In this document: one piece after another, positions 6,745 to 27,639 of the stretch | Layout of the letters: each line of letters opens with the position of its first letter | Numbering within the stretch: position 1 is the first letter of the stretch | Assembly (NCBI GenBank): GCA_964525635.1 | Contig: CAZGJX010000054.1 | Location: 1-27,639 of the forward strand | DNA: 27,639 nt | DNA from: an uncultured archaeon | GTDB taxonomy: Archaea; Asgardarchaeota; Lokiarchaeia; Sigyniarchaeales; SOKP01 | Direction of reading: 5' to 3' | Program-made: the position numbers and the translations under genes | The notes under the pieces: generated by a model | What the model saw: only the letters and a program-made list of their open reading frames with translations | What the model was told of the DNA's origin: nothing | Database searches by the model: none

Positions 6745-7988
6745 ATGAAAATCAATAAGAAATTAATAGTAGTAGCCTTATTTTTGATAATAACTATATT
6801 TAGTATATTTGGAACAGTAATAGTCTTCAAAATTCTTAAAAGTCCTAGAGAGAATATATTATTTCCGGATTTCTTTCCGTAAGTGAAAATAAAATAGTAG
6901 ACAATAATAATAAAGAGGTTATATTAAGAGGGATACAATTTGATTTTGTTTCTATAAGAGGAGATGTAAATTATAATGAAAGTGATGAAGAATTAAATGA
7001 TTTTTTTGATAATATGTTAGAATATATTGTTACTGAAGAAAATTTTATTGATGTAAAATCTATGGGAATAAATTCCATTAGATTGTCTTTAAATACATAC
7101 AAAGATTTTGAAAATAATTCACATAATTTTGGAAAATTAGATAATATAATTGAATTTGCTGAAAAAAAAAATATATATCTGATAATTAGTATGAGACAAT
7201 CACCTGGAGGACATAATCCTAGTAATCATTCAGGAAATGATGGAAAAAATGAATTATTGGATAATTATGAAGATCAACAAAGAATTATTACTTTATGGAG
7301 GACTATTGCTGATAGATATGTTAATAAATCAATTATAGCAGGATATGATTTGTTAAATGAACCATTGGCTCCTAATAGCACCATATTAAATAAGGTTTAT
7401 GGAGATATTTCCCAAGCTATAAGAGATGTGGATAAAAATCATATTTTATTTTTAGAAGGTAATAATTGGACAAAAAGTATGGATTGGGTAGATAATCCAA
7501 CAGATAATAAAACCGTATTAAGTTTCCATTTTTATGACCCCGGATCTTATGCTGTAGATGGTCAAGGCATATATCCCTCAATAATACAGGGCCAAGTATT
7601 TAATAAAGATGCTCTAAGAGAAAGATTATTAGAGAGATTAAAGTATATAAGAAATATAAATAAACCAATATTTGTTGGAGAGTTTGGCGCTGTGACCAGT
7701 GCTGAAAATTATTGAGATTATGATGAAGATGTAATTAAATTATTAGAAGAACAAAATTTGAATTGGATATATTGGAATTATAAGAACATCAAGGGGAGAA
7801 ATGATAGTCAAGCTATTTATTACACAGATTCAACAAATGAATTTCTTAAATTAATATCTGAAATAGATAATGGAAAATCAATTTCTAACTTTACTGATAA
7901 TGAAATAAACCAAGCGTTAGAATCATTAAGAACATCATATTTTAATCAAAAAGATAATCTTAGAGATCTATTAATTAGTAGTCTATAA
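6745..7988 (+). pseudogene. Membrane-anchored glycoside hydrolase family 5, disrupted
   Basis: Hydrophobic N-terminus from ATG 6745, then a frameshift near 6855 into FLSVSENKIVDNNNKEVILRGI. Catalytic LLNEP and VGEFG are present. An in-frame TGA at 7713-7715 is followed by same-frame DYDEDVIKLLEEQNLNWIYW. Confidence 0.85.
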
Positions 7989-19097: not shown

Positions 19098-19172
19098 TGG
19101 TGGGAGTGGAAGGATTTGAACCTTCGTAACGAACTTCCAAAGCTCGGATGATGAACACTACATTACACCCCC
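19098..19172 (-). tRNA. tRNA-Pro(TGG), CCA encoded
   Basis: GGGGGTG/CACTCCC acceptor; CGAGC-TTTGGAA-GTTCG; GAAGG-TTCAAAT-CCTTC. Confidence 0.85.
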
Positions 19173-26195: not shown

Positions 26196-26273
26196 GGGGG
26201 TGTAGATTAGCCTGGTTAGATCACCGTTCTTATAAAGCGGAGGCCGTGAGTTAAAATCTCACCATCCCTACCA
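26196..26273 (+). tRNA. tRNA-Ile(TAT), CCA encoded
   Basis: CCGTT-CTTATAA-AGCGG; body is a close paralog of Ile(GAT) at 25483; T loop TTAAAAT. Confidence 0.82.
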
Positions 26274-26540
26274 AAAATATTAAGTATTATTAAGAGAAGT
26301 GAAGAATCGTGAATAAAAGAGATAAAACTATTCATGAGAAAAATCAATAATAAATAATTATGTCTAAGGATATTATCAAAATAATCTTAAACTTGCTTTT
26401 ATGTTAAATTTTAATCTTTAAAATCCTATATTTCATTTTTCTTATAACTTTTTTTTAAAAATTTGGTTAAAATAATAAAAACCTTTATTAAATCTAGTTA
26501 ATGTAGATATTGAGAACGACAAATCAGTTTGAGTAGTATC

Positions 26541-27639
26541 ATGAACGAGTTTAAGGTAAATGAGTATTTAACACTGAAGTTAGAAAATGATGAAACAATA
26601 ATTTATGTGAAAGGTAAGCAATTTAACCAATGTAAGTTCCTGCTCTTAGAAATTCCTATTAATGAAATAACTTTATTAGAAGATCTTAAATCAATAGACG
26701 AGGCTGCAGAACGATTAACTAATATATTAGAACTTATTAAGGGTAAGAGAATTGATAAAATTCCACCTAAAACTGAATTTTGGGGACATTGTTCCAATCT
26801 TCAGGTATGGTTTGAATATAATTATGATACTCGATTATTACATTCCAATCTTTCATTTTCTTTACTTAGAAAACTATCTGAATTAGGAGATCCTCTTGCA
26901 AATAAAGTATTCAAAGAAGAAATTGTTAAACGGTTTCATTCTGGATATATTCCCTCTATTTATTATTTGATTAAAGAAGGATATCTTAACTATCTTAATA
27001 ATGATGAGATTAAGCTTATTTTTTTTGAAAATAATATAAAACTAAAACAACAACTTGAAAATATTGATAAGAATTTGGTAGATGAATCTTTCTATATTTT
27101 AAAAAAATTAATTAAAATAGGAGATCCTCATACAAATAAAGTATTAAAAAAAGCAATAGGAAACTTAACTTCAATTAAAAAACTTGATTTAAGTGGTAAT
27201 AAATTAACAGAACTTCCAGAAACTATAGGAAACTTGAATTCACTTCATAACCTTAATTTATTTTGGAATATATTAACAAAACTTCCAGAGACAATAGGAT
27301 TTTTGACTTTACTTAAAGAACTTAAATTAGGAAACAATAAATTAAAAGAACTTCCTGAAGCTATAGGAAACTTAAGGTTACTTCAAAAACTTGATTTAAA
27401 TAATAATCAAATAACTGGACTTCCCGAATCTATAGGAAACTTAACTTTACTTCAATCACTTGGTTTAACTAATAATCAAATAACTGGACTTCCCGAATCT
27501 ATAGGAAACTTAACATCACTTCAAAAACTTGATTTAAGTAATAATCAAGTAACTGAACTTCCAGAATCTACAGGAGAATTAAGATCACTTCAAAAACTTG
27601 ATTTAAGAGATAATCGAGTAATTAAACTTCCAGAATCTA
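26541..27639 (+). CDS. LRR protein with FWGHCSN N-domain and 23-aa LPESIGNL-type repeats (runs off the window)
   Basis: Open frame from ATG 26541: MNEFKVNEYLTLKLE...PKTEFWGHCSNLQVW...IGNLTSIKKLDLSGNKLTELPETIGNL. Missing from the ORF track because it has no stop in the window. Confidence 0.92.
   Translation, partial: MNEFKVNEYLTLKLENDETIIYVKGKQFNQCKFLLLEIPINEITLLEDLKSIDEAAERLTNILELIKGKRIDKIPPKTEFWGHCSNLQVWFEYNYDTRLLHSNLSFSLLRKLSELGDPLANKVFKEEIVKRFHSGYIPSIYYLIKEGYLNYLNNDEIKLIFFENNIKLKQQLENIDKNLVDESFYILKKLIKIGDPHTNKVLKKAIGNLTSIKKLDLSGNKLTELPETIGNLNSLHNLNLFWNILTKLPETIGFLTLLKELKLGNNKLKELPEAIGNLRLLQKLDLNNNQITGLPESIGNLTLLQSLGLTNNQITGLPESIGNLTSLQKLDLSNNQVTELPESTGELRSLQKLDLRDNRVIKLPES

Follow-up and report, generated by a model that had tools for sequence, protein, structure and literature searches.

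AUA stands alone among the sense codons in that most bacteria and archaea need a dedicated modification of cytidine to read it; eukaryotes employ a tRNA with a UAU anticodon in its place. In eukaryotic tRNA-Ile(UAU), an intron adjacent to the anticodon is needed for pseudouridine at positions 34 and 36. Outside the eukaryotes, a tRNA-Ile(UAU) takes the place of the modified-CAU system in Nanoarchaeum equitans, in Ca. Korarchaeum cryptofilum and in bacteria without TilS such as Mycoplasma mobile, and for M. mobile the avoidance of AUG misreading has been studied by experiment (PMC3575796). We found no searchable paper that links the loss of TiaS or of agmatidine to Asgard archaea. Anticodon shifts, in which a tRNA of one anticodon is derived from a tRNA of another, have been described in eukaryotes and organelles (PMC3923123, PMC4783518). 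tRNA array units, or L-arrays, are known from bacteria (Tran et al., 2016, PMC4758250; the Anabaena trn operon, PMC8421152), and a study of archaeal tRNA gene clusters found them only in Euryarchaeota (PMC6333295).

The DNA analysed here, referred to as the window, is 27,639 nucleotides long and is the whole of contig C54 of a Promethearchaeota (Loki-type Asgard) archaeon, the genome of which comprises 4.45 Mb with 26.8% G+C and is rated 100% complete. A gene at 26196-26273 on the forward strand was identified as tRNA-Ile(tat) by ARAGORN and matched the Rfam model RF00005 with 61.2 bits, against a gathering score of 29. Its anticodon, TAT, lies at 26231-26233, and this is carried on an isoleucine-type body, with A73 and A37 present and 85% identity to the tRNA-Ile(GAU) of the same locus. 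The gene encodes a terminal ACCA and is colinear with the tRNA model, with no insert and in particular no intron at 37/38 of the kind found in eukaryotic tRNA-Ile(UAU). Its thermodynamic folding was unremarkable (z = -1.2), a measure that is uninformative for tRNAs as AT-rich as these. An assembly or sequencing error at base 34 was also considered, and was rejected because the syntenic genes of the congeneric genomes G001 and G003 likewise have TAT. We conclude that this is a genuine and probably functional second tRNA-Ile(UAU).

The first-pass annotation had proposed that AUA is decoded independently of TiaS in a genome where ATA codons are abundant, and had recommended a search for tiaS. The presence of TiaS was judged by the TiaS-specific domain PF08489. 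No match to this domain was found in the genome itself, in any of 41 genomes of its order or in any of 137 genomes of its class (at least 80% complete); across the phylum it was found in 156 of 332 genomes of the same completeness, and it was present in all four archaeal control genomes. The demand for AUA reading is high, as ATA makes up 44.3 per 1000 codons and 38% of isoleucine codons, is the seventh commonest codon and occurs more than twice as often as ATG. As TiaS is missing across the class, AUA must be read by UAU tRNAs. We noticed two CAU tRNA genes, one in the tRNA array described below and one partial at the edge of contig C61, although this census is incomplete since many native tRNA genes are hidden by introns; without TiaS, a CAU tRNA would read AUG. 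The single CAU tRNA of the array in the window (26018-26095) has an A1-U72 pair. Reading of a heavily used AUA codon without TiaS thus does take place here, but as an old trait shared by the entire class.

It might be supposed from these findings that the gene at 26196-26273 is the only AUA decoder of the cell and a fresh, lineage-specific replacement of TiaS and tRNA-Ile2(CAU), as TiaS is absent and standard tRNA finders show no further tRNA-Ile(UAU) in the genome. However, the array-less relatives G012 and G030 carry intron-split tRNA-Ile(UAU) genes, and when exons of the intron-split tRNA-Ile genes of such relatives were used as queries, native isoleucine genes were located here also. The native tRNA-Ile(UAU) lies on the reverse strand of contig C50 (12414-12594; L132:3415-3595), where Rfam gives a weak match of 33.5 bits, and its three inserts lie in the D region, adjacent to the anticodon (37/38) and in the T loop. 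After splicing it was called Ile(tat) by ARAGORN and the cloverleaf was its minimum-energy fold. With its introns it is kept at 88-91% in all three congeners, and 59 of the 77 family genomes, array bearers among them, have a match to it. Within the family, the intron beside the anticodon is likewise conserved, at 73-85%. This conserved native gene speaks against a sole decoder, as does the absence of TiaS from the whole class, which makes the loss old and not tied to the gene in the window, and we regard that explanation as highly improbable. The absence of TiaS and the abundance of AUA thus stand as first proposed, whereas the array gene is not the sole solution to them. The vertically inherited AUA reader would be the three-intron gene on C50, to which the array gene would add a second.

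The native tRNA-Ile(GAU), found by the same exon search, is also intron-bearing; it lies at C92:6055-6158 (L133) and over 54 nt shares 98% identity with its counterpart in the array-less relative G012. It has an insert of about 30 nt in the T loop, which apparently starts with A and not with the usual T54. Both native isoleucine genes were missed by ARAGORN, which, when introns are allowed, mistakes long variable arms for introns. When the genome was searched by BLAST with the tRNAs of the array-less relatives G010 and G012, many queries had no match. Native copies of Gln, Trp, Cys, Arg, Phe and Leu genes, and of others, were found elsewhere in the genome; neither this search nor ARAGORN found native Pro, Glu, Asp, Tyr, His or Asn genes in a genome where introns hide many native tRNAs. 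Standard tRNA finders miss the native isoleucine genes here, and censuses of Asgard tRNAs made with them will mislead.

The gene at 26196-26273 belongs to an extra set of tRNA genes, of which the window contains 20 according to ARAGORN and 22 according to Rfam, arranged in two divergent blocks. The right-hand half (25170-26273, forward strand; ARAGORN and Rfam) consists of Asn, Phe (with an intron), Ile(GAU), Lys(CUU), Lys(UUU), Val, Arg(UCU, with an intron), Trp, Met, Arg(UCG) and Ile(UAU), and its spacers of 5-130 nt suggest that it is probably a single transcript. The tRNA-Ile(UAU) occupies slot 10, at the end of this half and 5 nt past tRNA-Arg(UCG). The left-hand half (19098-20390, reverse strand) holds His, Ala, Ala, Gln, Tyr, Asp, Gly, Thr, Cys, Glu and Pro, and the two halves are separated by a leucine-rich-repeat gene of 1267 amino acids (20912-24715, reverse strand); in genus g5 they are only about 0.6 kb apart. 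Tran et al. (2016) define a tRNA array unit as at least 20 tRNA genes at a density of at least two per kb, and the window has 22 genes in 7.2 kb, or about three per kb, despite the 3.8-kb inserted gene. A further five array tRNA genes lie on contig C146, and the most complete relatives hold 26-27. One arm reads in the order Asn-Phe-Ile-Lys-Val-Arg-Trp-Met-Arg-Ile-Lys-Leu-Leu-Leu-Ser-Ser and the divergent arm His-Ala-Gln-Tyr-Asp-Gly-Thr-Cys-Glu-Pro. The array is mostly intron-less; in the window two of its genes (Phe and Arg(UCU)) bear introns. Two tandem tRNA-Ala(UGC) genes that are 73% identical are present at 20147-20308, where other arrays have one. In G070 a gene for a LAGLIDADG homing endonuclease (L070:8245-9120) adjoins the end of the array, and on C146 (5990-6813) two ORF fragments of a LAGLIDADG homologue lie between Ser tRNA genes, in the portion of the array that holds Ser and Leu.

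Of 161 genomes of the class, eight, from three genera, were found to contain the array, as were six metagenome contigs; its bearers are G001, G003 and, in part, G002 in the same genus as our archaeon, G064, G067, G070 and G073 in g5, and G060 in g6. In other genera the tRNA genes are scattered. The genes that flank the array are of ordinary host type, conserved within the genus and different between genera. One explanation would be that the array, with its tRNA-Ile(UAU), is not a host invention but the captured foreign cargo of a virus or mobile element, where the gene served the element or countered a tRNA-targeting attack, and the patchy occurrence, the changing flanks, the endonuclease gene beside the G070 array with its remnants on C146, and the fast evolution of array tRNAs that are unlike the native ones all fit with this. 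However, the G+C content of the array equals that of the genome, its flanks are those of a host (the array of G064 sits on a contig of 281 kb) and two of its genes in the window have tRNA introns. The patchy distribution may instead reflect the loss of short array contigs during binning. A pattern scan of IMG/VR with the anticodon-arm motif returned only unrelated tRNA-Ile genes of giant viruses and phages, and the sole match in a phage BLAST search was to tRNA-Asn in Staphylococcus phages; a viral origin was rejected on these grounds. Taken as a whole, foreign cargo is very unlikely to be the explanation.

The array isoleucine genes share 51-66% identity with the native isoleucine genes of family f1, and up to 76% with the tRNA-Ile(UAU) of G030 (family f2), with the native genes falling into a clade of their own. 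Between congeners the array tRNAs are 84-86% identical, compared with 88-91% for the native gene even with its introns included, and this faster evolution could point to relaxed constraint. Among 14 array isoleucine genes 99.3% of cells nevertheless fit the cloverleaf, and compensatory substitutions occur at 12 of the 21 pairs, a degree of covariation that was reached by none of 500 shuffles. We conclude that the array genes are under selection as tRNAs. The first acceptor pair of the array tRNA-Ile genes in seven genomes is G-U or A-U and never G-C; the native isoleucine genes have G1-C72.

The first-pass annotation had also suggested that the tRNA-Ile(UAU) arose from a tRNA-Ile(GAU) by duplication and an anticodon switch, on the basis of sequence shared with the gene at 25483-25560. 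That gene, on the forward strand in slot 3 of the same array, was identified as tRNA-Ile(gat) by ARAGORN and scored 62.2 bits with RF00005, and it is a paralogue with the same type of body. We found that the two genes are identical at 66 of 78 positions. They have in common the first 15 nt from the 5' end, the GTGAG/CTCAC T stem and the terminal ACCA, confirming the similarity that had been noted, and the anticodon arm is identical except at base 34. With 85.5% identity they are the closest of 190 pairs of array tRNAs, for which the median is 56% and the next-best value 73%, and their likeness is therefore not due to chance.

We compared this pair across arrays, in 14 of which the order of slots is kept. 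In all arrays outside the genus but one (G070), GAU occupies slot 3 and UAU slot 10, on clearly different bodies, and the slot-3 GAT and slot-10 TAT bodies are also distinct on the six metagenome contigs; this is the ancestral layout. Two of the slot-10 genes (L071:7776-7850 and L126:8372-8446) are labelled tRNA-Tyr(ata) by ARAGORN, but their loop, CTTATAA, identifies them as tRNA-Ile(UAU) genes whose anticodon stem has a single mismatch. In the genus of our archaeon, by contrast with the ancestral layout, the slot-10 TAT genes fall into one clade with the slot-3 GAT genes of g1 and g6, with support of 97/99, and the tRNA-Ile(UAU) of the window is 86% identical to the slot-3 GAT gene of G060 and only 62% identical to its slot-10 TAT gene. 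It is thus nearer to a tRNA of the other anticodon than to its positional orthologues, which is the mark of tRNA remolding by an isoacceptor anticodon shift. As the slot-10 UAU genes of the genus group with slot-3 GAU genes, we conclude that the slot-10 body has been replaced by the slot-3 body. The proposed duplication and switch is accordingly upheld by the GAU-type body, the changed wobble base and the 97/99 clade, and the donor was the array's own Ile(GAU) and not the native one. In the genus, the original slot-10 UAU gene would have been overwritten by the slot-3 Ile(GAU), via duplication or gene conversion. The U at base 34 would most simply come from a G-to-T change, although a mosaic gene conversion in which base 34 was left untouched would yield an identical sequence with no point mutation.

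The reverse swap was seen in G070, where slot 10 has the anticodon GAT and yet is 88% identical to the slot-10 TAT gene of G073, and slot 3 carries TAT. The two genes (L070:7015-7089 and 7605-7679) thus have GAU and UAU in exchanged slots relative to the close relative G073 (L071) and to all other arrays. Each complete array has exactly one GAU and one UAU gene, which speaks for a need for both anticodons in the array itself, and selection would retain one gene of each kind irrespective of its body.

A different origin for the gene, from the native intron-bearing tRNA-Ile(UAU) by loss of the introns and with the encoded CCA as the mark of a retro-copy, was rejected. The stems are unrelated (GGTCCAG as against GGGGGTG) and the two genes share 56-60% identity. 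Moreover, only about six of the 22 array genes encode CCA, and slot-10 genes elsewhere end in ATCA or ATTA, both of which count against CCA as a retro-copy mark.

One feature of the gene had been read as a possible sign of decay. Its T loop is TTAAAAT, with an A at position 56 (26253 of the window), where all 21 other array tRNAs of the window and every orthologue have C. This change disrupts the near-universal G19-C56 tertiary pair, and it is private to this genome, as G001 and G003 have C. Since a native AUA reader exists and array tRNAs evolve fast, a redundant gene could be at the onset of pseudogenisation. To judge this we turned to the region downstream. Directly 3' of the gene is a leucine-rich-repeat gene (26529-27639, forward strand) that runs off the contig, and the last 55 nt of the window (27585-27639) match the end of contig C164 (L134) without a mismatch in reverse complement, such that the two contigs abut. 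The leucine-rich-repeat gene extends into C164, where it is followed by a dispersed repeat of 120-150 nt, with copies of 94-98% identity on at least eight contigs, and then by a degenerate copy of the tRNA-Ile(UAU) (C164:5982-6056, reverse strand). Beyond this copy are the genes that adjoin the array directly in G001 and G002. This arrangement, which spans the end of the window and C164:5982-6604, looks like a gene cassette that was inserted at the tRNA with duplication of the target.

The degenerate copy also has A56, and the substitution is therefore older than the duplication. Eleven of the 12 differences between the copies fall on the degenerate one, in which G10 and G18/G19 are lost and the T stem is broken, and a single change falls on the intact gene. 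That the intact gene stayed nearly unchanged as a neutral copy decayed speaks against ongoing decay, as do its 21 unbroken stem pairs out of 21 and a score equal to that of its GAU paralogue. We conclude that A56 does not serve as the sign of decay it was suspected to be, and a gene in the course of decay is an unlikely reading.

The explanation that we favour, and consider likely, is that the gene is a functional, intron-less and supernumerary tRNA-Ile(UAU) of an extra array, rebuilt on a GAU body, in a class that lacks TiaS. The array would sit beside scattered and intron-rich native tRNA genes, and U34 tRNAs would read AUA directly. Only one ileS gene (C23:32088-34676) is present in the genome; we infer that the tRNA is transcribed with the array, charged by this one IleRS and used in translation. 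These findings describe a whole class of Asgard archaea in which TiaS is lacking and UAU tRNAs are relied upon, some of its genomes having two such genes that are very unlike each other. Both the origin of the UAU solution seen in eukaryotes and the function of the intron beside the anticodon can thereby be tested in the archaea most closely related to eukaryotes. The exchange of GAU and UAU bodies in both directions is also a clear natural instance of isoacceptor anticodon switching among archaea, and suggests that one tRNA body and one IleRS can serve both anticodons.

A more far-reaching proposal, which we put forward only tentatively and hold to be doubtful, is that the array is a self-contained second decoding system, in which selection restores the GAU and UAU pair after homogenisation and the UAU tRNA works without the intron of the native Asgard and eukaryotic genes. 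If this were true, a single cell would have two AUA readers unlike each other in wobble modification and in discrimination between AUA and AUG, and they would provide a natural experiment on the rise of the eukaryote-style UAU solution and on the purpose of the intron.

UAU decoding without TiaS is already known as a principle. Like the systems of Nanoarchaeum, Korarchaeum and M. mobile, this archaeon has a UAU anticodon, U34 of which would read AUA, in a genome without a C34-modifying enzyme. It differs from them in its Asgard lineage and in having two UAU genes, the native multi-intron gene and the intron-less copy in the array. The array itself resembles bacterial arrays and euryarchaeal clusters, in that at least 20 densely packed tRNA genes for most or all amino acids, which may be additional to a scattered house-keeping set, evolve faster; it is unlike them in its Asgard host, its two divergent halves and the few genes with tRNA introns. 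As in the anticodon shifts described previously, a syntenic tRNA is nearer to tRNAs of another anticodon, which implies copying followed by a change of anticodon; here, however, the shift has taken place in an archaeal tRNA array, between the GAU and UAU isoacceptors of isoleucine, and in both directions (in the genus of our archaeon and in G070). With eukaryotic tRNA-Ile(UAU) the array gene shares the anticodon and the putative role of a dedicated AUA reader beside an AUU/AUC reader, but it is intron-less, and it is the native Asgard gene on C50 that has the anticodon-adjacent intron. What is new is that this is seen in an Asgard archaeon, that the gene coexists with a native one bearing several introns, and that anticodons have been swapped reciprocally.
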